Shown here piece after piece: positions 11,845 to 54,407 of a DNA stretch of 64,000 bases. Numbering within the stretch: the first letter of the stretch is position 1; every line of letters begins with the position of its first letter. The notes beneath the pieces are model-generated. The model was not told the DNA's origin, made no database searches, and saw nothing but the letters and a program-made list of their open reading frames with translations. Source of the DNA: a bacterium (lineage in GTDB: Bacteria; Patescibacteriota; Microgenomatia; Curtissbacterales; GWA2-41-24); contig JAKALT010000005.1 of assembly GCA_021813125.1 (NCBI GenBank), positions 107-64,106 of the forward strand. The letters run 5' to 3'. The position numbers and the translations under genes were made by a program.

Positions 11845-13491
11845 ATGTTATCTGATTCAATTACTAATGACTTGGTCATATCTTCACAACCTCTAATTCC
11901 CGCTTTATATTGTCGCGTTAGCACAGGTCGTCAGGAGAATGAAAAAACAATTGACAGTCAGATCGATGAAATTATTACTAAAGCTGTTGGTGACGGCACA
12001 GAGATCCGGTCCGATTTAAGGTTTGTTGATAATGGCTGGCCAGGAGAATTATTAGCGCGTCCAGCACTTGACCAGCTTAGGGATGCAGCAACACGAGGAG
12101 AATTCAATGCCTTATATGTTTATGATTTAGGCAGGTTATCGAGATCTTTTTTGGATCAACTAATTCTACTTAAGGAACTTCAAGATCTTGAGATCAAAAT
12201 CATCTCATTACACGACATTAATGCAGAAAATGATGAGCAGGTTTTTGCGAGAAATGTTATGGGTTTATTCCATGATTTCGAGCGGAAAAAAATTGCCGAA
12301 AGAATGAGGCGAGGGAAACTTTTTAAAGCTCGAAGTGGAACGCTGATTAATGGACAATCCTTATACGGGTTTAACTATATTAAAAAAACTGATACTGAAC
12401 CTGCGCGTTGTGAAATTAATAAAGAGGAGGCCAGAGTAATTAGAATGATTTTCGATTGGGTAGGGAAAGAAGGTGCATCAACTAGAGAAGTCATTAAAAG
12501 GCTTTATGATTTAGGAATTTCACCTAGAAAAGGTAAAACTACATTTTGGACCCATGGACCAATCGTAAGACTATTAAGGGAAGAATCTTATGTGTCTGGA
12601 TATATTTATTACAATAAAAGCGAGGCTGTTGTTGCTAAGAAGCCTCTTAAAAACATTAAATATAAAAAAATTAAAAGGGGTAGCCGTAGAATGCGGCCAA
12701 GGGAAGATTGGATACCTTTTCAGGTTCCTAAAATTATTGAAGATAGAAACCTTTTTGATAAAGTCCAAAGGTTAATAGAATATAACAAAAACTTTGCCTC
12801 TAAAAAAAGAAAATACGATTATTTGCTTTCGGGTATAGCTTTTTGTGAATGTGGTGCCAAAAGGGTAGGAGATGGAATCGATAAAGACAATTTTTATTAC
12901 CGATGCGCCGAAAGACTATATAGATTTCCTCTAGAGAAAAAGTGCCATTCAAAGGGTATTAATGCGGCAGTTTTGGATAAAGTATTTTGGAATGAACTAC
13001 TAAAGTTTATAAACAATCCATCATTGATTAGACAGGCTGCAGAAAATTGGCTTAGAGAATCTGGCGATAATGATAAGGATAGGTTAGAAAAGCAGGAGTT
13101 GACTGAATTTATAGCAAGGGTAGACGATGAGGAACAGCGTTATGCCAAAGCTTACGGCGCAGGAGCCTTGGATTTTGAAAAGTTCAAGGAATTGATGAGG
13201 GGCACGAAGAGGAAGAAGGATGGTTACCAGCAACAACTCGATAATCTGAATAATAAAATTGCTAATCAAGGGATAGACAGTATTCAATTAGATGAGGTTG
13301 TGGAAGAAGCAGGGAGGGTTTTTCAGTCTTTAGAGCTGCAAGACAAAAAACAAATTGTTCGGGATATAATAACTAAAGTCATCGTGAAAGGAGGGCTTGA
13401 GGTAGAAGTAAGGGGAAGAATCCCGCTTTTTCCCTCAAATATGGGATATGAACTTAAAGGTTGGAATAGTTGGGTTGCCAAATGTTGGTAA
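11845..13491 (+). CDS. Large serine recombinase (resolvase catalytic domain + recombinase domain + zinc-ribbon/coiled-coil)
   Basis: N-terminal ALYCRVSTGRQENEKTIDSQ (catalytic Ser), YVYDLGRLSRS, zinc-ribbon Cys cluster CECGAKR...YYRCAE...KKCHSKG, C-terminal coiled coil; its 3' end overlaps ychF by 44 bp. Confidence 0.85.
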   Translation: MLSDSITNDLVISSQPLIPALYCRVSTGRQENEKTIDSQIDEIITKAVGDGTEIRSDLRFVDNGWPGELLARPALDQLRDAATRGEFNALYVYDLGRLSRSFLDQLILLKELQDLEIKIISLHDINAENDEQVFARNVMGLFHDFERKKIAERMRRGKLFKARSGTLINGQSLYGFNYIKKTDTEPARCEINKEEARVIRMIFDWVGKEGASTREVIKRLYDLGISPRKGKTTFWTHGPIVRLLREESYVSGYIYYNKSEAVVAKKPLKNIKYKKIKRGSRRMRPREDWIPFQVPKIIEDRNLFDKVQRLIEYNKNFASKKRKYDYLLSGIAFCECGAKRVGDGIDKDNFYYRCAERLYRFPLEKKCHSKGINAAVLDKVFWNELLKFINNPSLIRQAAENWLRESGDNDKDRLEKQELTEFIARVDDEEQRYAKAYGAGALDFEKFKELMRGTKRKKDGYQQQLDNLNNKIANQGIDSIQLDEVVEEAGRVFQSLELQDKKQIVRDIITKVIVKGGLEVEVRGRIPLFPSNMGYELKGWNSWVAKCW

Positions 13492-15181: not shown

Positions 15182-15715
15182 GTGTCTAGTCGAGCTTCTC
15201 TCAATAAAGTATTGCTAATCGGAAATTTAACCCGGGATCCGGAGTTAAGGTACACTCCCAGCGGTGCTGCGGTTTGCACTTTTGGAATTGCAACAAACCG
15301 CTATTATGTTGCTTCGGATGGACAGAAGAAGGAAGAAACGGAATTTATAAAAATTGTTTCGTGGAATAAACTAGCCGAGCTTTGTTCGCAGCTATTGGCA
15401 AAAGGAAGAAAGGTTTATGTAGAGGGAAGGTTGCAAACCAGAAGCTGGGAAACACCGGACGGCCAAAACCGCCAGACGACAGAAGTAGTTATAGACGACA
15501 TGAGGATTTTGGATTCCAAGCGGGATTTTGAAGGTGGGGAAGAGGAATTATCCGGCGGAGCACCTGCTGATGAGGCGGAATTTGCTGAAGCAACAGGGAA
15601 GGAAGAAGCTTCGGGGAAAGCGCCTAAAGGCAAGGAAGTGAAAAAAGAATCTGCTGCCCCCAAGAAAAAAGAAGAGGAAGAAGACAAAGTCGATTTAGAC
15701 GACCTTCCATTTTAA
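15182..15715 (+). CDS. ssb: Single-stranded DNA-binding protein (GTG start)
   Basis: NKVLLIGNLTRDPELRYTPSGAAVCTFGIATNR; acidic tail ending DDLPF. Confidence 0.95.
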   Translation: MSSRASLNKVLLIGNLTRDPELRYTPSGAAVCTFGIATNRYYVASDGQKKEETEFIKIVSWNKLAELCSQLLAKGRKVYVEGRLQTRSWETPDGQNRQTTEVVIDDMRILDSKRDFEGGEEELSGGAPADEAEFAEATGKEEASGKAPKGKEVKKESAAPKKKEEEEDKVDLDDLPF

Positions 15716-19665: not shown

Positions 19666-19800
19666 TTAGTTTTAGGAGTTTTCTTTTAGAGTTTCTACGA
19701 TTTTTTCTAAATTACCATCCATAACGCCTGCTCTTCGATAAGGATAATGAGAAATAGGCCGAAGTAAGAATAGTGTTAAAAGGATAGCACATAATATTAG

Positions 19801-21252
19801 TTAGAATCCTCTTTGGTTAGGGGGCTTTAACTTAAAAATTTTAGTTTTATATCCGGAATATTCACCAATTATTTTTGAAGAAAGGGAGTTTTTTTCTAAA
19901 TATTGTTCTGTGTAATCAGGAAAAACAAACAAAGCGTTCAGGACAATGTAATCGGACGAATTTAGGATGCCTCTGTATTTATCAAGTTGTGTAGGGCCAG
20001 GCGGGAATTCGTAAAATTTTAAACCATTCTTGCCTCTTAATGCCAGATAAGGATCGGGAATTACGGACAAAAATACAGTGCTGTTTGGTTCAATGTTTTC
20101 CGAAATGTTTTTTGTGAAGCTGGCGAAGTTAAAATTACTGTTGTAGATAATCATTTTTGAAAAAATGATATTAAAGCTTATAAAGGCGATTATGAGGAGC
20201 AATGTGTAAATTCCTGTTTGTTTTATGATACCCGACTCTTCCTTTGCGTTTTTTAAAAGTGATATCAATATCAAGGCTAAAAAGGGTTGAAAGTAAAGAA
20301 AATACCATTGTTCTTTGCTGAAGATTACTGTGGTAGCAGAAATAATAAATCCTGCAAGAAGGAAGTAATTTTTTAAGCTGCGATTTTTATAGACATGGAG
20401 TGCAAAAATGAATAAAGCGATTAAACATAAAATGATTAAAATTTGCCATTGTCCGTCACCCCATCTATGTAATACCCAAGATTTTACAGCTGCTTTTTTA
20501 GCAAGATGCATTTGCATTTGCGCTATGAAAATATTTAATGTTTTTATAATTGTCAAAAACCATATTACAAAACCTAATGCTACAGGGAGCGAGAAAAATA
20601 ATATTGCATTAACTTTTTCCCGAAATTTTATACTGGAAAGTAAAATTGATAAAGCAATTATTGCCGGTGCAAGAAGCGCAATTACATGAGACAAGATAGC
20701 CAGTGAACAAAAAATGCCGCTACAGAGGTAGAGTTTTTTGTTTGTTGAGTTTAAGGCATTTAGAATGATTAAAAATGAGCATAGGATGAAAAAGAATGCA
20801 AGGATATCCATTCTTCCAATTCTTGATGACTGGTTGAAGTTGGGATCAATGGAAAGTAATAAGGTGGCCAAAGTTGCGTAATAATAGGTGTTGAAAATAT
20901 GTTTTGCGATCAAAAAGAAAACTGCAAGCGAAAAAATTCCTAGTAGTAACGACAGTGCCCTAACGGCAATTATTGAGGTTCCAAAAGTGTTAGTCCAGAT
21001 TGAGAGGAAATAGGAATACATTGGAGGTTGCCAAACTGCATATTGCGACATTCCTGGAATTGTATCCTTAAACAGAATGGTCGAAAAAGTACCTTTAGTA
21101 GAAAAGTTATTTGCAATATCCAAAAATATGCCTTCATCTGGCCAGGGCAGGGGGTCTTTAAGATATAAGAGGCTTGAGAATATTAAAAATGGGGTTATTG
21201 CCAATAGGAAAAGCAGTACAATCTTGATTTTCTCTTGCCATTTTTGAGCCAT
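19801..21252 (-). CDS. ArnT/PMT-like (GT-C fold) integral membrane glycosyltransferase
   Basis: 483 aa, ~12 predicted TM helices, GT83/GT39-like N-terminal region (GRMDILAFFFIL, ...). Confidence 0.5.
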   Translation of the reverse strand: MAQKWQEKIKIVLLFLLAITPFLIFSSLLYLKDPLPWPDEGIFLDIANNFSTKGTFSTILFKDTIPGMSQYAVWQPPMYSYFLSIWTNTFGTSIIAVRALSLLLGIFSLAVFFLIAKHIFNTYYYATLATLLLSIDPNFNQSSRIGRMDILAFFFILCSFLIILNALNSTNKKLYLCSGIFCSLAILSHVIALLAPAIIALSILLSSIKFREKVNAILFFSLPVALGFVIWFLTIIKTLNIFIAQMQMHLAKKAAVKSWVLHRWGDGQWQILIILCLIALFIFALHVYKNRSLKNYFLLAGFIISATTVIFSKEQWYFLYFQPFLALILISLLKNAKEESGIIKQTGIYTLLLIIAFISFNIIFSKMIIYNSNFNFASFTKNISENIEPNSTVFLSVIPDPYLALRGKNGLKFYEFPPGPTQLDKYRGILNSSDYIVLNALFVFPDYTEQYLEKNSLSSKIIGEYSGYKTKIFKLKPPNQRGF

Positions 21253-21367: not shown

Positions 21368-22288
21368 TTATTGGCTCTTTGGTTCGGTTTTTAAAGTATC
21401 GAAGATTTTTTCTAAATTACCATCCATAACACCTGCGATGTTGCCCCAGGATTTGCCAATTCGGTGATCTGTTACCCTGTCTTGCGGAAAGTTGTAGGTG
21501 CGGATTTTTTCACTGCGGTCACCGGTTCCAAGTTGTGTTGATCTGGATGCTGAAAGTTCCTGGTGAGTACGTTCTTCTTCCAAAGCGAACAATCGGGCAC
21601 GCAAGATTTCCATGGCGATTTCGCGGTTTTGGGCTTGGGACCTTTCCGTTTGAGCTTTGACAACAATGCCTGTTGGGATGTGTTTAATACGGACTGCCGT
21701 TGACACTTTGTTGACGTTCTGGCCGCCGTGGCCACCAGACCGGAAAGCTTCAAATTCAATATCTGCAGGACTTATAACTACTTCTGTCTGGCCGACTTCT
21801 GCTAAGACTGCAACAGTTGCAGTTGAGGTGTGAATACGGCCGGAAGATTCTGTTTTTGGAACGCGCTGTACCCTATGGACACCGGATTCAAATTTCAGTT
21901 TATCCCAAACATTTTTACCGCTTACCTTGTAAACAACCTCTTTTATGTTTCCGATTCCGCCTTCGTTTTTGTCCAGTTCATCGACTCGCCAGTTTTGGGA
22001 AGCAGCGTATTTGGTGTACATGCGGGCAAGATCACCTGCAAAAAGCCCGGCTTCATCGCCGCCGGCTGCAGCCCGGATTTCCAAAATTACGGAGTTTGCA
22101 CCCGGTTGCCCTTCCACAACTTCCGGTTTCTGGTAAAGCGCATTTTCAAGCTGGTTTTTTTGCTCTGTCAGATTTTTAATTTCTTCAGCGGCCAGATCTG
22201 CCATAGAAGGATCTGAAGCAGCTAGGTTTTCTGCATCTTTGATTTTTAATTCCAGATCTTCGATTTGTTTTTTCAGATAATCGCTCAT
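21368..22288 (-). CDS. prfA: Peptide chain release factor 1
   Basis: GGQ motif SGGHGGQNVNKVSTAVRIKH; RVQRVPKTESSGRIHTS (P-x-T type tripeptide region, RF1-like). Confidence 0.8.
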   Translation of the reverse strand: MSDYLKKQIEDLELKIKDAENLAASDPSMADLAAEEIKNLTEQKNQLENALYQKPEVVEGQPGANSVILEIRAAAGGDEAGLFAGDLARMYTKYAASQNWRVDELDKNEGGIGNIKEVVYKVSGKNVWDKLKFESGVHRVQRVPKTESSGRIHTSTATVAVLAEVGQTEVVISPADIEFEAFRSGGHGGQNVNKVSTAVRIKHIPTGIVVKAQTERSQAQNREIAMEILRARLFALEEERTHQELSASRSTQLGTGDRSEKIRTYNFPQDRVTDHRIGKSWGNIAGVMDGNLEKIFDTLKTEPKSQ

Positions 22289-43274: not shown

Positions 43275-44108
43275 GTGGGCGTAACCTTTAGAGAACTTTA
43301 CGGAATGGCTGGACTAGTCAGACGCGAGGAATTAGTTGCACAGATTCGAAGAGAGATTGACAAGACTCAATCCAGAAATGCAATTTGGGCGGAGGAAAGG
43401 TTAAAAGAATTAAGGGTTGCAAGAAAGGAACCTCTTTTGGACGTAGTGGTTGCAAGCGAAAATGGTGATGTAGTCCATTCGCTTTCAACATATCGCTCCT
43501 ATGCCAATAACGCTCAATTAGCCCTAACAGTTGATGATCTGGCCGCGTTTACTAGGCAAAATGAAATGTTTGCGTATCCGATCACGCCAGAAAATGATAC
43601 CGTATTGTTATGGCATCAGCGCGATGATGAGCGGCTACAGCATGTTGTCAAGAACAGATTCGGCCCGGTCGATGTTGAAGATTACGCTGTTAACGGGAAT
43701 AAAACTTGCGTTAGGATTGCGAGAATTAGAGGCGGTTTAATGGGTAAGGGTAGATTTGCCGATGTGAATGTAATATACGGCAGGCTGGGGTTTTGGGCTA
43801 ACCGTAAGCTTGCAATGGGAATGAATGGGGCCAGGACTTTAATTGAAAGAGCCTATTTTAAACAGTCGGAATTACTTGTCCGGGATGCGTTTGTGTCGCC
43901 ACTGGATCGTGATGAGATTTCGAAAAGAGGTGGGGTGCCAATGGGTTCAAGGCAGCTTGGGGTTGATGTTGTCAGGGTTGACGCTTCTAAAACGCACAAC
44001 GATTTTATTGCTAACGCCTTAGAAGGAACGTTAGAGTTTCCATACCCTGTTGTTTTGGGATACTCTACCTTGCGGCAATGGAAGGGTGAAGTTCCCGGGC
44101 GCAGGTAA
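43275..44108 (+). CDS. Hypothetical protein (277 aa)
   Basis: No recognisable motif; composition looks more GC-rich than its neighbours (visual estimate only). Confidence 0.4.
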   Translation: MGVTFRELYGMAGLVRREELVAQIRREIDKTQSRNAIWAEERLKELRVARKEPLLDVVVASENGDVVHSLSTYRSYANNAQLALTVDDLAAFTRQNEMFAYPITPENDTVLLWHQRDDERLQHVVKNRFGPVDVEDYAVNGNKTCVRIARIRGGLMGKGRFADVNVIYGRLGFWANRKLAMGMNGARTLIERAYFKQSELLVRDAFVSPLDRDEISKRGGVPMGSRQLGVDVVRVDASKTHNDFIANALEGTLEFPYPVVLGYSTLRQWKGEVPGRR

Positions 44109-44202
44109 TTTTCAGTTTTAATCTGCTATATCTTCCTCTGCTGACGCAGAGCGACACATATAAGATTGTTCTAAAAACGAGACTGATATATAATTTTTTC
44201 CA

Positions 44203-44232
44203 ATGAGCGGACATAGTAAATGGTCAACGATA
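44203..44232 (+). pseudogene. Decayed duplicate of the yebC 5' end (atgagcggacatagtaaatggtcaacgata = MSGHSKWSTI)
   Basis: 22/30 nt identical to the yebC start at 44312 (atgtcaggtcatagtaagtggagcacaatt); ORF terminates after ~30 codons. Confidence 0.5.
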
Positions 44233-44311
44233 TCAGCCATGCAAATTTATTTAATTAATATAAAGGTTTATGGAAGCATCCTGATATTGTGCTCAACAAA
44301 AGGAGATTTAT

Positions 44312-45052
44312 ATGTCAGGTCATAGTAAGTGGAGCACAATTAAACGACAAAAGGGCGTGACGGATGCTAAGCGCAGCCAGGCTTTCACGAAAATGGCAAA
44401 CGCGATAACTATTGCCGTCCGTGAAGGCGGTGGTGATCCTGCTTCTAATTTTAAATTACGGCTGGCAATCGATTCTGCTAGGGCTGTTAATACGCCGAAT
44501 GTTAATATCCAGCGCGCAATTGATAGGGGTCTGGGAAAAGGTGGAGCAGCGGCGATAGAAACCGTGGTCTACGAAGGTTACGGGCCAAGTAAGGTGGCAA
44601 TTATTGTGGAGGCGGCAACAGATAACAAAAACCGCACAACACCGGAAATCCGCGGAACAATTGAAAAAAATGGTGGGGTATTTGCCTCACCGGGTGCAGT
44701 TTCCTGGATGTTTAGTGATGTCGGAATGATTACGGTTGTCAAGGATAATAAGTCACTCGACGATGTTTTTGAGGCAGCGGTAGAAGCTGGGGCGGACGAT
44801 GTTGAGGATAGCGGGGAATCGGTTGAGGTTTATACAAAACCACATGATGTTGAAAAGGTTAAGAATGCACTAGCGGAAAAAGGGTTTACAATCCAGGGAG
44901 CGGAACTATTTAAAAAACCTACAACAACAGTTTTAATTTCCGAAAAAGCGCAAGCGGAAAAAGTTTTGGCATTTGTAGAAAAGTTGGAGGATTTGGACGA
45001 TGTGCAAAAAGTCTACAGCAACTTCGATATTCCAGAGAATTTGCTTCAGTAA
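44312..45052 (+). CDS. yebC: YebC/PmpR-family DNA-binding regulator
   Basis: MSGHSKWSTIKRQKGVTDAKRSQAFTKMANAITIAVREGGGDPASNFKLRLAIDSARAVNTP. Confidence 0.9.
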   Translation: MSGHSKWSTIKRQKGVTDAKRSQAFTKMANAITIAVREGGGDPASNFKLRLAIDSARAVNTPNVNIQRAIDRGLGKGGAAAIETVVYEGYGPSKVAIIVEAATDNKNRTTPEIRGTIEKNGGVFASPGAVSWMFSDVGMITVVKDNKSLDDVFEAAVEAGADDVEDSGESVEVYTKPHDVEKVKNALAEKGFTIQGAELFKKPTTTVLISEKAQAEKVLAFVEKLEDLDDVQKVYSNFDIPENLLQ

Positions 45053-45090
45053 AACTTGAAACGTTAGAGTCGTTTGAATATATTAAAAAT

Positions 45091-45507
45091 ATGCCAGAAA
45101 CACAGGAAAGCGAAAGAAAAGTAAGAGTTATCCCATTCGGTGAATTAGATCCGCAGGAAGCTGCGCATTTTATAAATTGGGATCTTGAAAATGTTGAAAG
45201 TGAAACAAGAGGAGATCATACATCTGTTATGACCCGCGAAGATCAGGGTTATTATGCCGGAATGTCGCTTTGGAACAGTCCTGAAAAGAAAAGGGTTTCA
45301 TTTGACTCAGCGAACTTTGATAACAGTTTTCATATTAACAGCCCAGAAACGGTTGAATTTGATGATGAAAAAAGAAGTATTAAAATCATTGGTGAAGATG
45401 GTAAGTATCTTCTACTGACTCGGGGTTCAATTGAATTTATTGATAATAATGTAAGATATTCTATTGATTTCTCAAAAGCGGCAGTACCACCACCTAATTC
45501 ATATTAA
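45091..45507 (+). CDS. Hypothetical protein (138 aa)
   Basis: ORF only. Confidence 0.35.
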   Translation: MPETQESERKVRVIPFGELDPQEAAHFINWDLENVESETRGDHTSVMTREDQGYYAGMSLWNSPEKKRVSFDSANFDNSFHINSPETVEFDDEKRSIKIIGEDGKYLLLTRGSIEFIDNNVRYSIDFSKAAVPPPNSY

Positions 45508-45526
45508 ATTGGTAATTCCTTAATTG

Positions 45527-45572
45527 AATGAGATCTACAAATCCATCCTAAATTCCAAGCCCCATTTTTTGG
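45527..45572 (-). pseudogene. Displaced duplicate of the GNAT gene 3' end (minus strand encodes KKWGLEFRMDL*)
   Basis: 36-bp identity tacaaatccatcctaaattccaagccccattttttg with 45797..45832. Confidence 0.7.
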
Positions 45573-45576
45573 GAAC

Positions 45577-45783
45577 TTACTTTTTAGAATTAGGGAGAGA
45601 TTTTTGCAAATATTTATCTGCCAAGAACATTACAATCATTGCAACAATTACTGCAAACGAAAGTGCACCGTAAGATTGAGCTGGTTCTAATTTGGGGAGC
45701 AGAATACTAAATACCCACATCACTACTACCATGGTTATCCAACCGATAAGCAAATCAATGATAAGTCTCATTAAGTTCTTCAT
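45577..45783 (-). CDS. Small 2-TM membrane protein (68 aa) between the GNAT gene and its duplicated 3' end
   Basis: MKNLMRLIIDLLIGWITMVVVMWVFSILLPKLEPAQSYGALSFAVIVAMIVMFLADKYL... Confidence 0.45.
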   Translation of the reverse strand: MKNLMRLIIDLLIGWITMVVVMWVFSILLPKLEPAQSYGALSFAVIVAMIVMFLADKYLQKSLPNSKK

Positions 45784-45795
45784 AGTTTTAAATTA

Positions 45796-46224
45796 TTACA
45801 AATCCATCCTAAATTCCAAGCCCCATTTTTTGAAGCCTAATTTTTCGTAGAGCTTGTGTGCGTCGGTGCGGTCGGTCCCGGATGTGAAGAGGATTTTATA
45901 GCAGTTTCTGGCACGGGCAAGTTCGAAAATTTTATCAAACATTTTTGTGCCGATACCCTGGCCGCGGGTGGACTCATCGACCACCAAACCTTCCAATAAG
46001 GCATAAGGGCGACTCCTAATTGGTACTTCTATATAATATATGGCGGCTGTTGCTGCGACTTTTCCAGATTCATCCCTGGCTACCAAGACATCACAGGTAT
46101 CGTCGGCAAGCTGTTTTTCTAAAGCATCTCTTGCTCCGTCTGCAATTTTTTCGGTGCGGTAAATTTGGGTTTGAAGATTTAAGATTGCGTCGATGTCAGC
46201 AGGTGTTGCGATTGCTATTTCCAT
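45796..46224 (-). CDS. GNAT-family N-acetyltransferase
   Basis: LVVDESTRGQGIGTKMFDKIFELARARNCYKILFTS; start at MEIAIATP (46224) rather than the long ORF-track extension. Confidence 0.75.
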   Translation of the reverse strand: MEIAIATPADIDAILNLQTQIYRTEKIADGARDALEKQLADDTCDVLVARDESGKVAATAAIYYIEVPIRSRPYALLEGLVVDESTRGQGIGTKMFDKIFELARARNCYKILFTSGTDRTDAHKLYEKLGFKKWGLEFRMDL

Positions 46225-46280: not shown

Positions 46281-47516
46281 GTGAAGTTATACGAATTTGA
46301 AGGCCACAACCTTTTTTCAAAAGTAGGAATTGCGAGCCCTTTTTTTGTGGCTTGTTCCAATATGGATGAAGTGGAGCAGGCAAGAAAGCGTTTGAAATTC
46401 CCGATAGTTGCCAAGGTTCAGGTGCTTTCCGGCAAGCGCGGAAAAGGCGGGGGGATAAAGATTTGCACAAACGAAAAACAACTAAATGATTTTTGTCGTG
46501 GAATGTTTGGAGCAGAATTTAGTGGGGAAGGGGTACGATTTATATCTCTTGCCGAAAAAGCGCAAATCGAGGGCGAATATTATGCTTCCATAACTTATGA
46601 CACAACTTTGAAAATTCCATTTCTTTTGTTTTCCAAAAGCGGGGGAATGGATATAGAAGAGGTTAAAAAGAATTCACCGGAGGAAATTTTAAGGTTTGAC
46701 ATAAACCCTTTTTCGGGTCCAGACAAAACGAATCTTTCAAAAAAATTAAAAGACGAAACGCTGGCGGATTTCTTAATTAGGCTTTGGGATGCGTTTATAA
46801 GATACGATTGCCGGCTGGTTGAGGTTAATCCTGTCGCAAAGGTTGGAGACGATTATCTGGCTGTTGATGCCAAGATAATTTTGGATGATGCAGGCCTTGC
46901 AAGGCATCGAGATTTGGATGTATTGCAAAAGGGTTCTGCAGGCGCTATTCCGACGGAGCGGGAACTTGCGGCCCGAAAAATCGATGAAGAAGATTATCGC
47001 GGTAGTGCGGGTTCGACATTTATAGAATTCGGCGGGGATATTGCGGTTTTGGCGTCCGGCGGCGGCGCATCACTTCTGGTAATGGATGCCCTGTCTGAAG
47101 CAGGCGGAAAACCTTCTAACTACACCGAATATTCCGGAAATCCGCCGAGAGAAAAAGTAGAGAAGCTTACAAAAATCACATTGTCAAAAGAAGGTCTAAG
47201 CGGCTGTTTGGTTTGCGGGGCTGTTGCAAATTTTACGGATATTTATGAAACGCTGGCGGGTTTTGCCGATGGACTGGCGGAAGTAAAACCGAAACCTGAT
47301 TATCCGATTGTTATTCGTCGCGGTGGGCCAAGGCAAAAGGAAGCTTACGAAATGCTGGAGAAGTTAGCAAAAAAAGAAGGTTTTGATATTCATCTTTTTG
47401 GGCCGGAAACACCGATTTCGGTTGCATGCCGGGAAATGGTTAGGCTTTCTGAGAAATTCAAATCCAGTGAAAAAGGTCAGGCCTTTTTACAAGAAGTATC
47501 AAAGGTTAAGGCCTGA
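46281..47516 (+). CDS. sucC: Succinyl-CoA-synthetase beta-subunit-like ATP-grasp protein (could be citryl-CoA synthetase large subunit); GTG start
   Basis: KLYEFEGHNLFSKVGI...VAKVQVLSGKRGKGGGIKIC matches the SucC N-terminal ATP-grasp; C-terminal CoA-ligase domain; 3' end contains a REP-like element. Confidence 0.7.
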   Translation: MKLYEFEGHNLFSKVGIASPFFVACSNMDEVEQARKRLKFPIVAKVQVLSGKRGKGGGIKICTNEKQLNDFCRGMFGAEFSGEGVRFISLAEKAQIEGEYYASITYDTTLKIPFLLFSKSGGMDIEEVKKNSPEEILRFDINPFSGPDKTNLSKKLKDETLADFLIRLWDAFIRYDCRLVEVNPVAKVGDDYLAVDAKIILDDAGLARHRDLDVLQKGSAGAIPTERELAARKIDEEDYRGSAGSTFIEFGGDIAVLASGGGASLLVMDALSEAGGKPSNYTEYSGNPPREKVEKLTKITLSKEGLSGCLVCGAVANFTDIYETLAGFADGLAEVKPKPDYPIVIRRGGPRQKEAYEMLEKLAKKEGFDIHLFGPETPISVACREMVRLSEKFKSSEKGQAFLQEVSKVKA

Positions 47517-47520
47517 CCTT
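47471..47520 (+). repeat. REP-like palindromic element embedded in the last codons of the sucC-like gene
   Basis: aaaaggtcaggcc-tttttacaagaagtatcaaagg-ttaaggcctgacctt; encodes ...EKGQAFLQEVSKVKA*. Confidence 0.6.
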
Positions 47521-47532
47521 AACAAAAGAATT

Positions 47533-48426
47533 ATGGCTATCTTAGTTAATTCAGAAACTAAAGTTTTGATTCAAGGTATTACCGGAAAGTCGGGTTTGTC
47601 GGCGTGTGCTGATCTTTTAGACTACGGAATGCAAGTTGTCGGCGGTGTAACGCCGGGCAAAGGCGGACAAGTTGCAATGGGGCTGCCGGTTTTCAATTCG
47701 GTTCGCGAATTAGTTGCGGCACTTGGGCTGGTAGATTGTGCAATGGTCAATGTGCCGCCACTTTTAACTTTAGATGCGGCAATGGAAGCAATAGATGCGC
47801 AAATTCCCTTAATCCATATTTTTGCAGAAAGGGTTCCGGTACTGGATACTTCTAAAATATTATTTCGTGCAAAAGAAAAAGGTGTTCGGGTTTTGGGGCC
47901 GAATTCGGTTGGAGCGATTTCGCCGGGCGAAGGGAAGGTTGGCTCAATCGGCGGGCCGAATGCCAAGATAACTTTTAGTAAAGGCCCGGTTGGGGTCATT
48001 TCCAAGTCCGGCGGTATGTGTTCGGAGTTGGGTTCCATGATTACCAATGCCGGTTTTGGACAGTCGACAGTTGTGGGTATTGGCGGCGATTTGCTTGTCG
48101 GGACAACGTTTGTAGACGCTTTGGAAATGTTTGAAAGTGATACTCAAACAAAAGTTGTTGTGATGTTTGGGGAAGTAGGAGGTAATGCGGAAATTGAAGC
48201 GGCGAGATTAGTTGCGGTAAAGAAATTTACGAAACCTTTGATAATATTTCTGGCAGGGAAGTTTGCGGAAAAGTTGCCGAAAGACACGGCACTAGGGCAT
48301 GCAGGAGCAATTGTCGGACTTGATTCGACGATGGAGCAAAAAGTTGCATCAATCAAAAAATCCGGAGCAATACTGGCCGAAAATTTTGAAGATATTCCGG
48401 GAATCTTAAAGAAAGTGATTAAGTAG
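47533..48426 (+). CDS. sucD: Succinyl-CoA-synthetase alpha-subunit-like CoA-binding protein
   Basis: MAILVNSETKVLIQGITGKSG...VVGGVTPGKGG...GLPVFNSVREL...VLGPNSVGAISPGEGKVG. Confidence 0.85.
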   Translation: MAILVNSETKVLIQGITGKSGLSACADLLDYGMQVVGGVTPGKGGQVAMGLPVFNSVRELVAALGLVDCAMVNVPPLLTLDAAMEAIDAQIPLIHIFAERVPVLDTSKILFRAKEKGVRVLGPNSVGAISPGEGKVGSIGGPNAKITFSKGPVGVISKSGGMCSELGSMITNAGFGQSTVVGIGGDLLVGTTFVDALEMFESDTQTKVVVMFGEVGGNAEIEAARLVAVKKFTKPLIIFLAGKFAEKLPKDTALGHAGAIVGLDSTMEQKVASIKKSGAILAENFEDIPGILKKVIK

Positions 48427-48838
48427 TTGCAGATCGAATAAATTTCTTATAAATATCTGGAATATCCAAATTAAGTATTTCCTCAGGGGTTAACCATTTA
48501 AATGCAATATGCTCACTACTCAACTTAACGTTACTAGTAATGGCCATTGCACTAAATCCTATCATTACTGTAAAACAACCATCTTCTTCTTTAAATGAAG
48601 TTATATCTATTGGTCTGACATCAGTTACCTCAAGATCAGTTTCTTCTTTAATCTCTCTTTTTATTCCTTCAGTTGGATCTTCATACTTGTCTAGTCCTCC
48701 TCCGACCAAATCCCATCCCATAGGCCGGCTGTAATCTTCTTTAAGCCTTTGAAGGACTAAAATTTTCCCATTATTATTAAATGCCACAGCTTTTAGGGAT
48801 ATTGCGACTTTTGAGGAATGCCACTCCTTAATTTTCAT
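48419..48838 (-). CDS. NUDIX hydrolase
   Basis: Nudix box GGGLDKYEDPTEGIKREIKEETDL. Confidence 0.8.
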   Translation of the reverse strand: MKIKEWHSSKVAISLKAVAFNNNGKILVLQRLKEDYSRPMGWDLVGGGLDKYEDPTEGIKREIKEETDLEVTDVRPIDITSFKEEDGCFTVMIGFSAMAITSNVKLSSEHIAFKWLTPEEILNLDIPDIYKKFIRSATT

Positions 48839-48968
48839 AGAAAAAGTATATCAGAAGTTTATTGGCTTTGTTTGCGGAAATCGCCAACACTAATAGGGGT
48901 CAGACTCCTAAAATTTTTAAGGTTGGACAATATAAGTGCTTAAGATATAATAAATTAGCTAATTTGCT

Positions 48969-49703
48969 ATGGCAAAATATAAAACATCGATTTCCACCCA
49001 TCACAACGGCAAGCCGTATGTGTATGGATACGATTTGACCAAACTTGCCGAGTCACCTTCATTTACGCGCACAATTTATTTAATTTTAATGGGCAAAATG
49101 CCGGACAAAAATGCCGAGCGGATGCTGGATGCGATTTTTACCATTGCAATAGACCATGGAGTAGAGCCATCTTCTGTGGTTGCCGCCAGAAATGTTTATT
49201 CGGCCGGGTCACCTGTTCAGGCGGCTGTTGCTGCCGGAGTTTTGGCGTTTGGCGAATTCCATGGTGGAGCAATAGAGCAAACGATGGAGAATTTTAAAAA
49301 GTGGCAAAGCGTTGGTGCAGCCGAAATGGTTGCGGATTTTGCAAAGCGGGGAGAGAGGGTAAGCGGTTTTGGCCACAGGCTTTATACTGTTGACCCAAGG
49401 ACCCAAAAGCTTTTGGAAATTGCCAAAAAGCTCGGGTTCTACGGAAAATATGTAAAGTTTGCACTGGAGGTAGAAGCGGAGGTTTCCAAAGGAGCGAAGA
49501 AACTACCGCTCAACATTGACGGGATTTTCGGGGCACTGCTTCTTGAGATGGGATTTAATCCCAAAGTAGGAAAGGGAATATTTATAATTGCAAGAACTCC
49601 GGGAATCGTTGCCCATGTGGTTGAAGAAGCTTTGCGGGAAAAGCCGGTAAGACGTCTTGATGAGTCGGAAGTAGAATACGACGGACCGAGGGTTAGGGAG
49701 TAA
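48969..49703 (+). CDS. Short citrate-synthase-like protein (citryl-CoA-lyase-like)
   Basis: 244 aa with the citrate-synthase signature GFGHRLYTVDPR and helix block AIDHGVEPSSVVAARNVYSAGS. Confidence 0.6.
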   Translation: MAKYKTSISTHHNGKPYVYGYDLTKLAESPSFTRTIYLILMGKMPDKNAERMLDAIFTIAIDHGVEPSSVVAARNVYSAGSPVQAAVAAGVLAFGEFHGGAIEQTMENFKKWQSVGAAEMVADFAKRGERVSGFGHRLYTVDPRTQKLLEIAKKLGFYGKYVKFALEVEAEVSKGAKKLPLNIDGIFGALLLEMGFNPKVGKGIFIIARTPGIVAHVVEEALREKPVRRLDESEVEYDGPRVRE

Positions 49704-49706
49704 TTC

Positions 49707-50333
49707 ATGATAATTTTTGGTATAGATCCTGGAACTGCAACTACAGGCTATGGGGTTATTGATACCCTTGTCACAACTTCAAATAAACAATTTCAATTAA
49801 TCGAATACGGTTGTATTGTTACTCCCAAAGAGCAAGAGATGCCTATGAGGCTTTTGAGTATTCAGAACGATCTACATAGGCTATTAAAACAGCATAAACC
49901 CGATTGTGTATCTATTGAGCAATTATTCTTTGGAGTAAACTCCCGGACCGCAATGACGGTAGGGCAGGCAAGAGGTGTAGTGCTCTCGACGGTAGCATCC
50001 TATAGGATACCAATATTTGAATATCAAGGACTCCATGTAAAGCATACGATAACAGGGTCGGGGAAGTCTGATAAAAAAGAAATCCAGAAATATGTGATGA
50101 GGTATTTAGGAAAAAGGAAACTGGAAAAACCAAAGGTCGGGTATATAGATGATGCTGCAGATGCATTGGCGGTTGCGATTTGCCATTATATAAAGGTATC
50201 AAATGTATCAGATGTAGAAAACGTTTCGATAAATCGAAATACAAAAGTATCGAATGTATCAAAAGTTACAAAGGTGTCCAATATAAAAAAGGGGGCAAAA
50301 GTGTCAAAGGCAAAGAAAAAGGGCAGGCCTTAA
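49707..50333 (+). CDS. ruvC: Holliday-junction resolvase RuvC with Lys/Val/Ser-rich C-terminal tail
   Basis: MIIFGIDPGTATTGYGVID, IEQLFFGVN, DAADALAVAICH; tail KVSNVSDVENVSINRNTKVSNVSKVTKVSNIKKGAKVSKAKKKGRP. Confidence 0.9.
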   Translation: MIIFGIDPGTATTGYGVIDTLVTTSNKQFQLIEYGCIVTPKEQEMPMRLLSIQNDLHRLLKQHKPDCVSIEQLFFGVNSRTAMTVGQARGVVLSTVASYRIPIFEYQGLHVKHTITGSGKSDKKEIQKYVMRYLGKRKLEKPKVGYIDDAADALAVAICHYIKVSNVSDVENVSINRNTKVSNVSKVTKVSNIKKGAKVSKAKKKGRP

Positions 50334-50368: not shown

Positions 50369-51228
50369 TGCAGGCGTATATCAAATGGTGTAGGGAAGTG
50401 AAGCTAAATATATTTCCAAACCCGATTAAATCGGTTTCAAAGATAACAAAATACGAAATAACCAAGCGGCAAAGGTTTATTCTGATGTCGTTTTTTTTGA
50501 CCGCGATTTTAATTGCAGCCCAAACGGTTTCGGAATCTGTGCGCTACCAGGTAATGGTCTTTTTGGCATTTGCCACAACGCTTCTTGCGGTTTTTGCCCT
50601 TTGGGGTGAACTCTCCGGCTTAAAATATTTCCTGCTTCTATTGCTGCCTGTTTATTTCGTGACAGGTGCGACGCTTTTTTACTTTTTACTGCCTGTTCGA
50701 TGGATAACACGTTTACCGTTTGCTTTAGCATTTGGAATTTCGGTTTATCTTTTAATGCTGACTTCCAATATCTATAATGTGGCGGCAATACGAACGATTG
50801 CGCTACTTCGGGCAGCGCATGCGGTTGGACACCTTTTTTCGCTTGTCGCTACCTTTTTTTTGTTGAATGTTTTATTTTCGCTCCATCTTTCGATATTTTT
50901 GACAGTTGCGGGGGTCGTTGCGGTTTGCGGACCGATATATCTTGTTAACTTATGGTCGTTTGGGCTTGAGGATTATATTACCCAGAAGGTTTTTGGGCAC
51001 ACTGTTGTTTTTACCCTTGTGACGGCGCAAGTTGCTTCTGTTTTTGCTTTTTGGCCCTTGGCACCTATCAACGCTTCGCTTGTGGTAATTACAGCCATGT
51101 ATGTACTTTTGGGGCTAGGGCAGTTTGTGTTTCACGAAAAGTTAAAGCCCAGAATAGTTTGGGAACATTTGTCTGTAGCTCTCGTCGTGGCTGTGATTAT
51201 TATGATCTCTTCAAGGTGGGGTGGATAA
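50344..51228 (+). CDS. Hypothetical polytopic membrane protein
   Basis: 294 aa, ~8 TM helices. Confidence 0.45.
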   Translation: MLVQRPAFMQAYIKWCREVKLNIFPNPIKSVSKITKYEITKRQRFILMSFFLTAILIAAQTVSESVRYQVMVFLAFATTLLAVFALWGELSGLKYFLLLLLPVYFVTGATLFYFLLPVRWITRLPFALAFGISVYLLMLTSNIYNVAAIRTIALLRAAHAVGHLFSLVATFFLLNVLFSLHLSIFLTVAGVVAVCGPIYLVNLWSFGLEDYITQKVFGHTVVFTLVTAQVASVFAFWPLAPINASLVVITAMYVLLGLGQFVFHEKLKPRIVWEHLSVALVVAVIIMISSRWGG

Positions 51229-51232
51229 TATT

Positions 51233-51301
51233 AAGTGATAAGTGATAAGTGATAAGTGATAAGTGATAAGTGATAAGTGATAAGTGATAAGTGATAAGTG
51301 A
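51233..51301. repeat. Heptanucleotide microsatellite (GTGATAA)x~9.5
   Basis: ttaagtgataagtgataagtgataag...gtgagg; a degenerate partial copy (gataagtgataagtaaaaagtgataag) lies at 51691..51718. Confidence 0.9.
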
Positions 51302-52102
51302 GGCCTATAGTATCTATAAGGGAAGAGGTAAATTTTAGTCTTTTTTCTTCTAAAATGGAAAAACTCCCAGCCACAAATTAGCTTCAAATATTTTTCAAGA
51401 AAAAGTGGGGATAGAAGAGATGGGGAAGAGGAATGGGTGATATAGTGTGATATAGTTATAGTTTTGCGAAATCGTGAAAAAGGGTAACGTGAAAATTACA
51501 GAACTATGTAAATTCCCGCATTTAAACATAAATAAATATGTATGGATGCACTGGAAGGACAGAGGACTATAAGGCTTCTACTCTACGTAAGAAAGTCTTA
51601 CATTTCTCATTGGCATGCCGACAAGTTAATTGCTAAAAGGTTAAAAAGTGCCGTTTTAGGCTTTTTTGGGGAAGGGCCATTTTTGAAGCGATAAGTGATA
51701 AGTAAAAAGTGATAAGTTATTTTATTCTTTTATAATTTTCCTCCCTATATTCCCCATGGTGGGGGCCAATTTCCTATTAGCTACTGCGTCGCACAATGAT
51801 ACTTTTGCGACGCGAGGTGAAGCTGAGAGAGGGGGTCGAGTTTATCAACGTTTCGAATATTTGCTGAGTTTCTTATTTTTAACTTTTTGTAATTTCTCTG
51901 CTTTTTCATTTTTCCCCGTTTTTTCATCGCAGATCAATTTCGATCCACTTATCCCCTTTTGATTATAAATAGTTCTTTTTAGGGTTAGATTGATTAGAAT
52001 TGATCCACAAGCAGTAGCCCATTTATCATCTATGTTTATAAAAAGCCGTTTTAGGGGCTATCAGCGGCTCGGCGTGGCTAAAATGTGGCTAAATATAGGT
52101 AA

Positions 52103-53477: not shown

Positions 53478-54407
53478 ATGGATCTGCCTGCCCTGGTTGG
53501 CGAATTTTTAGAATATTGCGAAATTGAACGAAACCTTTCCCCTCTTACGATACGCGATTACCGGCATTATTTGGAATTTTTTTGTGAATGGTCTAAAGCT
53601 AACTCCCCTATTTTGAGACCTCAGGATTTAACTTTGGAGGTTGTACGCAAATATCGTGTTTATTTAGCCCATTACAACAGTCCAAACGGTAATTTACCCA
53701 TTAAAAAGGTAACGCAGAATTATTATGTTATTGCACTAAGATCTTTTCTGCGGTATTTGGTCAAAAAAGATTTGAAAGTAGTAACGCCTGACAAAATAGA
53801 GCTTCCAAAAACGGAATCGAGGTCCCTTAAGTTTTTGGACCGTGACCAGTTGGACAGGCTTTTGGGGCAACCGGATGTCTCAAAAGAACGAGGGTTGCGG
53901 GATAAAGCTTTAATGGAGATGTTGTTTTCGACAGGGCTTAGGGTTTCGGAGCTGTGCAGGCTTAACCGAGATCAGGTAAATTTGGAAAGGCGCGAGTTTG
54001 GGGTAATAGGTAAAGGGGGCAGGGCGCGGGTAGTTTTTCTTTCGGACAGAGCCTGTTTGTGGCTTGAGCGTTATCTTTCCAAAAGAAGCGATTCTTTTGG
54101 GCCGCTTTTTATCCGCTATTCGGGGAATATGGATCCGACTGTGAATGGAGAAAAAATGAGGCTAACTCCCCGGTCCGTGCAGCGGCTGGTTGATAAGTAT
54201 GTGCGGAAAGCTCGTTTGCCCGTCAAGGCTTCCCCGCATGTTTTGCGGCATTCGTTTGCAACAGACCTTTTGATGAACGGTGCCGATTTGAGATCGGTTC
54301 AGGAACTTTTGGGGCACAAAAACGTGGCTACAACGCAAATTTATACCCACGTTACCAACGCGCAGCTTAAGGACGTCCATAAGTCGTTTCATAGCGGGAA
54401 CAAATAA
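53478..54407 (+). CDS. XerC/XerD-family tyrosine site-specific recombinase
   Basis: RDKALMEMLFSTGLRVSELCRL, HVLRHSFATDLLMNGADLRSVQELLGHKNVATTQIYTHV (R-H-R-Y catalytic set). Confidence 0.9.
   Translation: MDLPALVGEFLEYCEIERNLSPLTIRDYRHYLEFFCEWSKANSPILRPQDLTLEVVRKYRVYLAHYNSPNGNLPIKKVTQNYYVIALRSFLRYLVKKDLKVVTPDKIELPKTESRSLKFLDRDQLDRLLGQPDVSKERGLRDKALMEMLFSTGLRVSELCRLNRDQVNLERREFGVIGKGGRARVVFLSDRACLWLERYLSKRSDSFGPLFIRYSGNMDPTVNGEKMRLTPRSVQRLVDKYVRKARLPVKASPHVLRHSFATDLLMNGADLRSVQELLGHKNVATTQIYTHVTNAQLKDVHKSFHSGNK

Follow-up and report, generated by a model that had tools for sequence, protein, structure and literature searches.

A duplicated acetyltransferase gene tail marks the joint between single-gene modules in a Microgenomates genome

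We analysed a direct repeat in a 64,000-nt stretch of DNA (the whole stretch is called the window below) from a population of Microgenomates (CPR). The genes around the repeat (positions in Table 1) run in the order TPR protein, 277-aa gene, yebC, an orphan ORF of 138 aa, an orphan copy of a gene tail (T2), a 68-aa gene (s68), a GNAT acetyltransferase gene and ATP-citrate-lyase-like genes. The repeat is an exact 36-nt direct repeat, TACAAATCCATCCTAAATTCCAAGCCCCATTTTTTG, with 36 of 36 positions identical and the two copies spaced 261 bp apart. One copy (T1) is the working end of the GNAT gene, its 36 nt stopping one base short of the end of the stop codon (TAA at 45796-45798). The other (T2) encodes the same 11 residues and then ends in TAG (45535-45537), as opposed to the TAA of T1, and the sequence that precedes it in the reading direction is unrelated to GNAT. 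This duplication of the GNAT 3′ end, reported in the original prediction with the first copy one base too high and the second placed correctly, is real; none of 100 dinucleotide-preserving shuffles gave a match, even with up to three mismatches allowed. The insert between the repeats is 225 bp long and holds a single small ORF, s68, which sits 5 nt from T2 and 12 nt from the GNAT stop; T2 separates the s68 module from the 138-aa module. The GC content is 33% for the insert and 36% for the 138-aa region, compared with 45% for GNAT and yebC and 40.7% for the whole window. The 138-aa ORF is itself AT-rich (36% GC, GC3 of 24%), has no Pfam or NCBIfam match, and found only itself among 5.8 billion proteins. 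No inverted repeats bound the insert, and no Rfam family was found anywhere in the window.

Table 1. Positions in the window of the genes, repeat copies and gene fragments discussed in the text
Feature	Position	Strand	Remarks
Large serine recombinase	11845-13491		32 kb from insert, beside a defence-like island
SSB	15182-15715		
Orphan release-factor 3′ end (AGVMDGNLEKIVETLKENS, then stop)	19672-19731	-	beyond the PMT-family glycosyltransferase gene; Pfam PCRF/RF-1, PMT_2
PMT-family glycosyltransferase gene	19801-21252		Pfam PMT_2
Release-factor gene	21368-22288	-	
Native yebC promoter-proximal region and first 30 nt of native yebC	44186-44232	+	match to L105; also by tblastx
yebC remnant	44203-44232		encodes MSGHSKWSTI; 109 nt upstream of yebC
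Region upstream of present yebC	44233-44311		79 nt
Candidate imported block	44233-45571		
yebC (TACO1/YebC family)	44312-45052	+	Pfam
138-aa orphan ORF	45091-45507	+	convergent to GNAT; ends 28 nt before T2
T2, orphan GNAT tail copy	45536-45571	-	36/36 identical to T1
s68, 68 aa	45577-45783	-	ortholog P0108; dN/dS 0.07
GNAT acetyltransferase gene, 142 aa	45796-46224	-	Pfam Acetyltransf_1, E=2.8e-18; 105 homologs in Microgenomates
T1, working GNAT tail	45797-45832	-	encodes KKWGLEFRMDL
RuvC	49707-50333		
XerC/XerD-type recombinase	53478-54407		8 kb from insert

The arrangement is the same base for base, 1 SNP apart, in five separate assemblies or samples (L001-L004 and GCA_027346405.1), all of one Microgenomates population, and the repeat is therefore not an assembly artefact. 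An allele without the insert, for which the original prediction had proposed to look, was seen in none of the contigs of these five assemblies. We considered as a candidate for an s68-less allele a contig (L005) that ends exactly at the edge of T1; it is of the same strain (1 SNP in 1,523 nt), and the simplest explanation of its end is that the assembly broke at the repeat. A tandem duplication of the 261-bp unit was ruled out, as the shared block is only 36-49 nt. Nor is s68, or the insert as a whole, a repeated or MITE-like element, as no second copy was found in the window or in any fetched locus.

We analysed the relatives of s68, described in the original prediction as a two-transmembrane protein. 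A word-indexed search of 5.8 billion proteins returned matches from its own population only, and the Pfam and NCBIfam families gave no hit above threshold. When 1.84 billion representatives were searched exhaustively with phmmer, a single ortholog (P0108, 78% identity) was recovered. P0108, in lineage L111, lies directly after a GNAT gene about 85% identical to that of the window, with the yebC stop codon 12 nt beyond it. The second tail and the 138-aa gene are both absent from L111. The homology between the window and L111 spans GNAT, T1, a short spacer and s68, and ends at the s68 stop codon. Between the two lineages, dN/dS and dS were 0.07 and 1.5 for s68, 0.12 and 0.78 for GNAT, and 0.15 and 1.07 for the 3′ part of yebC. 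The ortholog and the low dN/dS rule out a spurious ORF, and s68 is a real, conserved gene under purifying selection. Because its divergence from the L111 ortholog is at least that of GNAT and yebC, s68 is, as judged from substitution rates, an old resident that has neighboured GNAT since the lineages separated, and not a recently delivered cargo as had been proposed. T2, with no coding role in the window and no changes in its 36 positions, would then be much younger than the pairing of s68 with GNAT, or has been kept identical by gene conversion.

We compared the GNAT-to-yebC interval in lineages whose GNAT is 80-91% identical to that of the window. Homologs of this GNAT occur in Gottesmanbacteria, Woykebacteria, Curtissbacteria and Woesebacteria (all Microgenomates); in a GNAT-profile search of genome contigs the matches listed were mostly distant GNATs, with L012 a useful exception. 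Among lineages, nucleotide identity was 80-86% for GNAT and 79-86% for yebC. With G for GNAT, T for its tail, Y for yebC and T2 for an orphan tail, and with modules designated X, M (a class I methyltransferase), S (94-103 aa), P (about 250 aa, on the GNAT strand) and s68, the interval reads G-T-[X]-Y in L008, G-T-[M]-Y in L110, G-T-[S]-Y in L105 and L106, G-T-[P]-Y in L108 and L109, and G-T-[s68]-Y in L111. Two modules follow one another in L009 and likewise in L010-L012 and L099 (G-T-[X]-T2-[M]-Y), in L007 (G-T-[P,S]-T2-[X remnant]-Y), in L006 (G-T-[S]-T2′-[X]) and in the window (G-T-[s68]-T2-[138 aa]-Y). The interval is thus a modular variable slot that holds different single-gene modules in different lineages. 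Each of X, M, S, P and s68 is found singly in some lineage, the 138-aa ORF being the only tandem module without a single-module counterpart elsewhere. Alleles with a single tail, the empty sites that the original prediction had called for, are present in L008, L105, L106, L108, L110, L111 and L104. In all four two-module lineages (the window, L009, L007 and L006) an orphan GNAT tail lies between the modules. The duplicated block always ends on its right at the GNAT stop, the point where homology between lineages ends, and its left edge varies: -36 for the window, -39 for L009 and about -46 for L007, whose repeat measures about 44-46 nt. The modules are of mixed orientation. A YebC 3′ fragment beside T2, sought in the two-module lineages because it might settle the direction of the events, was not found, a result uninformative on direction.

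The tail itself is strongly conserved. Tails of other lineages typically differ from that of the window at 0-5 of 36 positions, usually at a few synonymous sites, L009 alone being identical; there the identity extends over 39 of 39 nt, though the two GNAT genes are only 80% identical. Part of this sequence is dual-coding. On the strand opposite T1 one frame reads T-N-P-S-stop (of three reverse frames, no other has a stop in the tail), and in L008, L009 (both tails), L110, L006, L007 (T2) and L104 the last 17 nt of a convergent gene lie within the tail. The overlapping genes finish in (T/K/A)NPS-stop on the reverse strand (TT ACA AAT CCA TCC TAA) and belong to four unrelated families: X, M, S and a 202-aa protein of L104. 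Where no convergent gene ends in the tail (T1 of L007, L108, L105), the stop-forming codon varies, TTTAGG being changed to TTTCGG or TTTCGA. The dual coding of part of the tail accounts for its near-invariance, and the identity of T1 and T2 is therefore a weak clock; it does not make this duplication the most recent one, as had been concluded from it. A further consequence is that an insertion parting GNAT from its convergent neighbour survives only if at least 17 nt are duplicated.

A second scar lies upstream of yebC. The 30-nt remnant upstream of yebC, ATGAGCGGACATAGTAAATGGTCAACGATA, matches the yebC start of L105, whose GNAT is among the closest to that of the window, at 29 of 33 positions, and the preceding TATAATTTTTTCCA is identical to L105 at 14 of 14. 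It matches the present yebC at only 21 of 33 positions, with all differences synonymous, and the 79 nt upstream of the present yebC differ from the sequence upstream of both the remnant and the L105 gene. The remnant is of native origin. At least the 5′ end of the present yebC and its 79-nt upstream region are foreign to this lineage. Over its full length the present yebC has a nucleotide identity of 0.79-0.82 to all relatives, compared with 0.81-0.86 among the relatives, an outlier status that the window GNAT does not share; it is possible, on these identities, that the whole gene was imported. Mosaic analysis of GNAT and yebC was suggestive only, the genes being too short. The sequence from the yebC 5′ scar to the far edge of T2 (Table 1) may represent one imported block.

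A third scar was found elsewhere in the window, where the end of a release-factor gene lies beyond a glycosyltransferase gene and 7 nt from a convergent HAD gene. Over 48 nt this orphan is 90% identical to the end of the current release-factor gene (21389-21436), after which it has its own C-terminus (IVETLKENS, compared with IFDTLKTEPKSQ in the current gene) and its own stop. Because of this different C-terminus and separate stop codon, the fragment cannot have arisen by local duplication and is the end of a diverged release-factor gene. Scars resembling the GNAT repeat thus do occur elsewhere in the window, as had been predicted (19672-19731 and 44203-44232). The three (release-factor 3′ end, yebC 5′ end and GNAT 3′ end), however, have no sequence in common and include a 5′ end, which does not fit a common targeting of 3′ ends.

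These comparisons bear on a purely local origin of the repeat, in which the GNAT end was duplicated by replication slippage or unequal exchange, with no gene transfer, and s68 merely happens to lie between the copies. The identity of T1 and T2 over 36 nt and the mere 261 bp between them agree with such an event. However, the rest of the 261-bp unit is not duplicated, so there was no tandem duplication, and the stop codons of the two copies differ. In L111 s68 is followed by yebC without the 138-aa gene, so one flank of T2 must have received new DNA. The C-terminus encoded by the parallel release-factor scar differs from that of the current gene, and the like scars in L009, L007 and L006 part modules that are found singly elsewhere. 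We therefore regard a local origin as very improbable.

We looked for a recombinase that could have targeted the GNAT 3′ end. None was found in any examined GNAT-yebC interval of any lineage. The XerC/XerD-type and the large serine recombinase (Table 1) are the only recombinases of the window, and neither is linked to the scars. No integron integrase is present, the XerC/D-like protein scoring 109 bits against a cutoff of 265. To our knowledge, large serine recombinases leave no direct repeats of 36 bp or otherwise long ones. The tail and its junctions showed no significant fold on either strand of either copy (z from -0.21 to +0.93), and the tail has no dyad symmetry, which rules it out as a terminator, hairpin, attC or dif site. 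We searched viral and metagenome collections for the tail with a degenerate 21-nt pattern. Among 2.9 million viral contigs the pattern hit only two sequences, both by chance; the hits among 241 million metagenome records were GNAT-linked tails, including a pair of the L009 type, and three chance matches. The two viral and three metagenome matches were not accompanied by a GNAT, YebC or module gene, so the tail was not recovered on phage or other mobile DNA, though its absence from these collections is not proof that a free form is absent.

The features of the known classes of element were distributed accordingly. A site-specific att element would have a linked integrase, a fixed crossover block and a free form in the viral or metagenome collections, and none of these was found. 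An integron would have intI with attI and an array, and attC-type hairpins, and neither intI with attI and an array nor such a hairpin at the tail was present. A DNA transposon is at odds with a duplication of 36 bp and with the lack of terminal inverted repeats and of a transposase. Present at the locus, on the other hand, are repeats longer than 30 bp that are single-copy in relatives without the insert, with no transposase, integrase or terminal inverted repeats, as described for long target duplication. The locus also has conserved GNAT and yebC flanks and a tail up to 39/39 identical, which could serve as homology anchors. The two joints were located at s68 stop plus 5 nt with GNAT -36, and at native yebC plus 30 nt with the foreign upstream region. 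Of the functions on which DNA uptake and RecA-type recombination would draw, RuvC and SSB alone were seen in the window (Table 1).

The original prediction held that single-gene modules are delivered by a dedicated mechanism of integration into gene 3′ ends. That the locus gains and loses single-gene modules with copies of gene ends at their borders stands; a dedicated mechanism of this kind does not, given the lack of a recombinase, of a dyad or fold, and of constant edges. In its fullest form this explanation invokes a site-specific recombinase that acts in trans, takes the GNAT 3′ end for its att site and inserts small integrase-less cassettes, each with a copy of that end. It would account for a repeat length of 36-48 bp, which is within the range of att identity blocks, for recurrent insertion at the same gene end in at least four lineages, for a right edge that is always exactly at the stop codon, and for several unrelated convergent genes that end in a copy of the tail, as if the tail had travelled along with them; the window also encodes an XerC/D-like and a large serine recombinase. 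It does not account for left edges that vary between events, for modules of mixed orientation that also occur singly and not between two tails, or for the genome's other scars, which are at unrelated sequences and include a 5′ end. Together with the missing recombinase in or beside any insert, the unstructured tail, its chance-only occurrence in viral contigs and its GNAT-bound occurrence (bar chance matches) in metagenome records, and the established products of large serine recombinases, these points make the explanation improbable. A related proposal is that the last 36-48 nt or so of GNAT are the true recombination site of a cassette system that has no integrase linked to it, with circular units of gene plus tail excised and re-inserted tail by tail. 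We give this little credence; if true, it would explain both why four convergent families share the T-N-P-S-stop frame and why the breakpoints lie at -36 to -48.

We consider it rather probable, taking the above together, that the repeat is the scar of homology-anchored illegitimate recombination between related genomes, which joined modules without a dedicated integrase or att site. Related genomes would exchange modules through homology in either GNAT or yebC, the conserved flank that serves as anchor, while the opposite end would be closed by an illegitimate (non-homologous) joint. Where this joint lands within GNAT, a few dozen bases short of its 3′ end, two tandem modules with an orphan tail between them would result. 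The length of the orphan would be limited from below by the last 17 nt, without which the convergent gene is truncated, and from above by the tail being too short for homologous recombination in GNAT, which would lead to a plain module swap; single modules are indeed found in many lineages. Orphan tails of 36-48 nt may thus reflect the range between the 17-nt overlap and the length needed for ordinary recombination. Why the breakpoints of three or four independent events should all cluster at -36 to -48 is accounted for here by argument, not by data.

In the window, homology-anchored recombination would probably have started from an L111-like ancestor (GNAT-s68-yebC) that took in the block at 44233-45571 from a diverged relative. 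The block would consist of the 79 nt upstream of yebC, yebC itself, the 138-aa ORF, 28 nt and 36 nt of the donor GNAT tail; the native yebC would have been lost to it except for the first 30 nt, which remain as the second scar. That this block is the newcomer is a lean, not a result. Two illegitimate joints are needed for such an import, and no donor with the 138-aa gene was found among 5.8 billion proteins. Barring gene conversion, the 36/36 match of T2 to T1 is more readily understood from a close source or a local duplication than from a donor with a yebC diverged by 20%.

The same scars can be read in the opposite direction. A fragment comprising the 3′ part of GNAT, T1 and s68 could have come from an L111-like relative by homology in GNAT, with an illegitimate joint 36 nt inside the resident GNAT; the resident T2 and the 138-aa gene would have been pushed downstream, and the yebC 5′ scar would be a separate event. 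The stop codons bear on this choice. GNAT ends in TAG in the closest relatives (L006, L105 and L111), as does T2 but not T1 (TAA); on this count T2 would be the native end and T1 with s68 the import. L111 itself has TAG, however, so that such a donor leaves the TAA of T1 unexplained. A donor-like GNAT-s68 order does exist in L111, identical T1 and T2 copies would be expected of a donor and a recipient closely related at GNAT, and the geometry matches the displacement seen at T6SS and Rhs loci. On the other side, a second independent event is needed for the yebC remnant that borders the same block, the illegitimate joint lies inside the homology anchor and not beyond it, and the divergence of s68 from L111 matches vertical co-descent with GNAT. 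We think the opposite direction possible but unlikely.

The homology-anchored reading makes the locus a new and unusually well-resolved example of an already known recombination scar. Insertion with long target duplication, credited to Nobusato et al. 2000 and Furuta, Abe and Kobayashi 2010 (PMC2853133), produces repeats longer than 30 bp, involves no mobility genes, has low-GC inserts and in some cases overlaps gene 3′ ends, as in a 46-bp repeat that overlaps 15 bp of HI0105 (PMC2853133). The locus resembles these cases in its direct repeats of more than 30 bp, its short insert without a mobility gene, the single copy in insert-less genomes, the varying repeat lengths and the lower GC of the insert. 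The published inserts, however, are restriction-modification genes, mostly in cultured, naturally competent Proteobacteria (PMC2853133). Here we find small genes in uncultured CPR, one slot used in at least four lineages, and a repeat that is partly dual-coding.

Homology-facilitated illegitimate recombination (HFIR) is said to have been shown experimentally by de Vries and Wackernagel in 2002, by Prudhomme et al. in 2002, and by Meier and Wackernagel in 2003. Sequential displacement of the HFIR type has been invoked for the orphan gene ends of T6SS effector-immunity arrays in Vibrio and for Rhs C-terminal displacement (PMC5361080), and those loci share with ours the one-sided homology anchor, the illegitimate far joint, the orphans shifted downstream, arrays built by repeated events and the lack of an integrase. 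The modules here, unlike those, do not consist of a toxin and its immunity protein, and any selection for keeping the orphans is therefore not obvious; the orphan is only 36-48 nt, and the process is known here from its scars only. The minimal mobile elements of Neisseria (Saunders and Snyder 2002) are reportedly strain-specific whole-gene cassettes at one site, moved by transformation and flanking homology. They resemble the slot in having different whole-gene cassettes between two conserved flanking genes, but are described as clean replacements without gene-end duplications. Integrase insertion at gene or tRNA 3′ ends, and integron arrays, likewise show a target 3′ end on both sides or a repeated site between cassettes; they differ from this locus, which has no integrase, variable edges, a structureless site, mixed orientation, and modules without a second site.

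As a caution for similar cases, an identical duplicate of a gene end proves neither that the enclosed gene is the newcomer nor that the event was recent. The overlapping ends of convergent genes constrain which insertions survive. The CPR have tiny genomes with few recognisable mobile elements and no cultures, and their gain of genes is poorly documented. The natural series of single modules, double modules and scars described here would illustrate how they may gain genes, namely by recombination between diverged relatives without the machinery of mobile elements.

The 3′ tail of the GNAT acetyltransferase gene, read on its reverse strand, supplies an ending ...NPS-stop that is common to four unrelated families of convergent genes: the single-gene modules X, S and the methyltransferase, and a 202-aa protein. 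The convergent gene and the GNAT tail overlap by 17 nt. We read these endings from the GNAT 3′ ends and the orphan tail copies of six homologous loci from related lineages (L008, L009, L110, L006, L007 and L104). Drift of the stop-forming codon (AGG to CGG or CGA) was limited to tails in which no gene ends.

A site resembling a promoter (TTGGAA and AATAAT 16 nt apart, plus a TG) lies partly in the GNAT tail and partly in the junction immediately upstream of s68, the 68-aa gene between the two tail copies. No Shine-Dalgarno sequence was found for s68; the gene may be leaderless or on one transcript with GNAT. In L005 (ERZ27237587), a k=141 contig from the window's own population, the terminus is the last base of the working tail (window 45797), and its partner contig, L117, terminates within s68. 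It is possible that this terminus reflects a minor allele at the locus. However, L005 differs from the window by 1 SNP in 1523 nt and is the same strain, so the assembly probably broke here at the repeat.

Two further gene-end fragments were analysed (see the table). The remnant upstream of yebC matches the relative L105 at 29 of 33 positions, whereas the start of the working yebC differs from it at synonymous sites, and the upstream region is also different. The orphan release-factor end carries its own, different C-terminus and its own stop, and a convergent HAD gene lies 7 nt from it.

Features described in the text (window positions unless a locus is named)
Feature	Position	Remarks
131-nt intergenic element	21-151, 1719-1849, 4966-5096	three direct copies
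Large serine recombinase gene	11845-13491	
Orphan release-factor 3′ end	19672-19731	past PMT-family glycosyltransferase gene (19801-21252); release-factor gene at 21368-22288
277-312-aa protein family	43275-44108; L110 6932-7870; L108 7054-7971; L105 1787-2110	
Native yebC promoter and first 30 nt of native yebC	44186-44232	MSGHSKWSTI; 109 nt upstream of working yebC
Promoter-like site	45792-45819 (-)	
ATP-citrate-lyase-like gene set	46281-49703	ATP-grasp_2 + Citrate_bind; CoA_binding + Ligase_CoA; short citrate-synthase C-terminal domain protein
TAAGTGA tandem heptamer repeats	51218-51308, 51671-51719	
Surface-protein gene repeat	57337-57696, 60350-60709	genes of 1046 aa (DUF4185 + dockerin) and 989 aa (Big_7)

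Other repeats occur in the window. The 131-nt copies are 71-89% identical; they match no Rfam family, and no structure is supported for them. They sit within a defence-like island of DUF3800, SWIM, zeta toxin, TIR and HEAT-repeat proteins, which adjoins the serine recombinase gene. Two large neighbouring genes for surface proteins have about 360 nt in common at their 3′ ends (88-94% identity); this repeat is a C-terminal region present in both genes and no orphan fragment. The heptamer repeats form two intergenic patches close together.

Between yebC and the TPR gene, some lineages carry a member of the 277-312-aa family, which has no Pfam or NCBIfam match and is missing from L008 and L009. 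This site seems to be a second variable slot, next to the one between GNAT and yebC. The ATP-citrate-lyase-like set, which adjoins GNAT, is kept in all relatives examined, and represents metabolic content unusual in a CPR genome.
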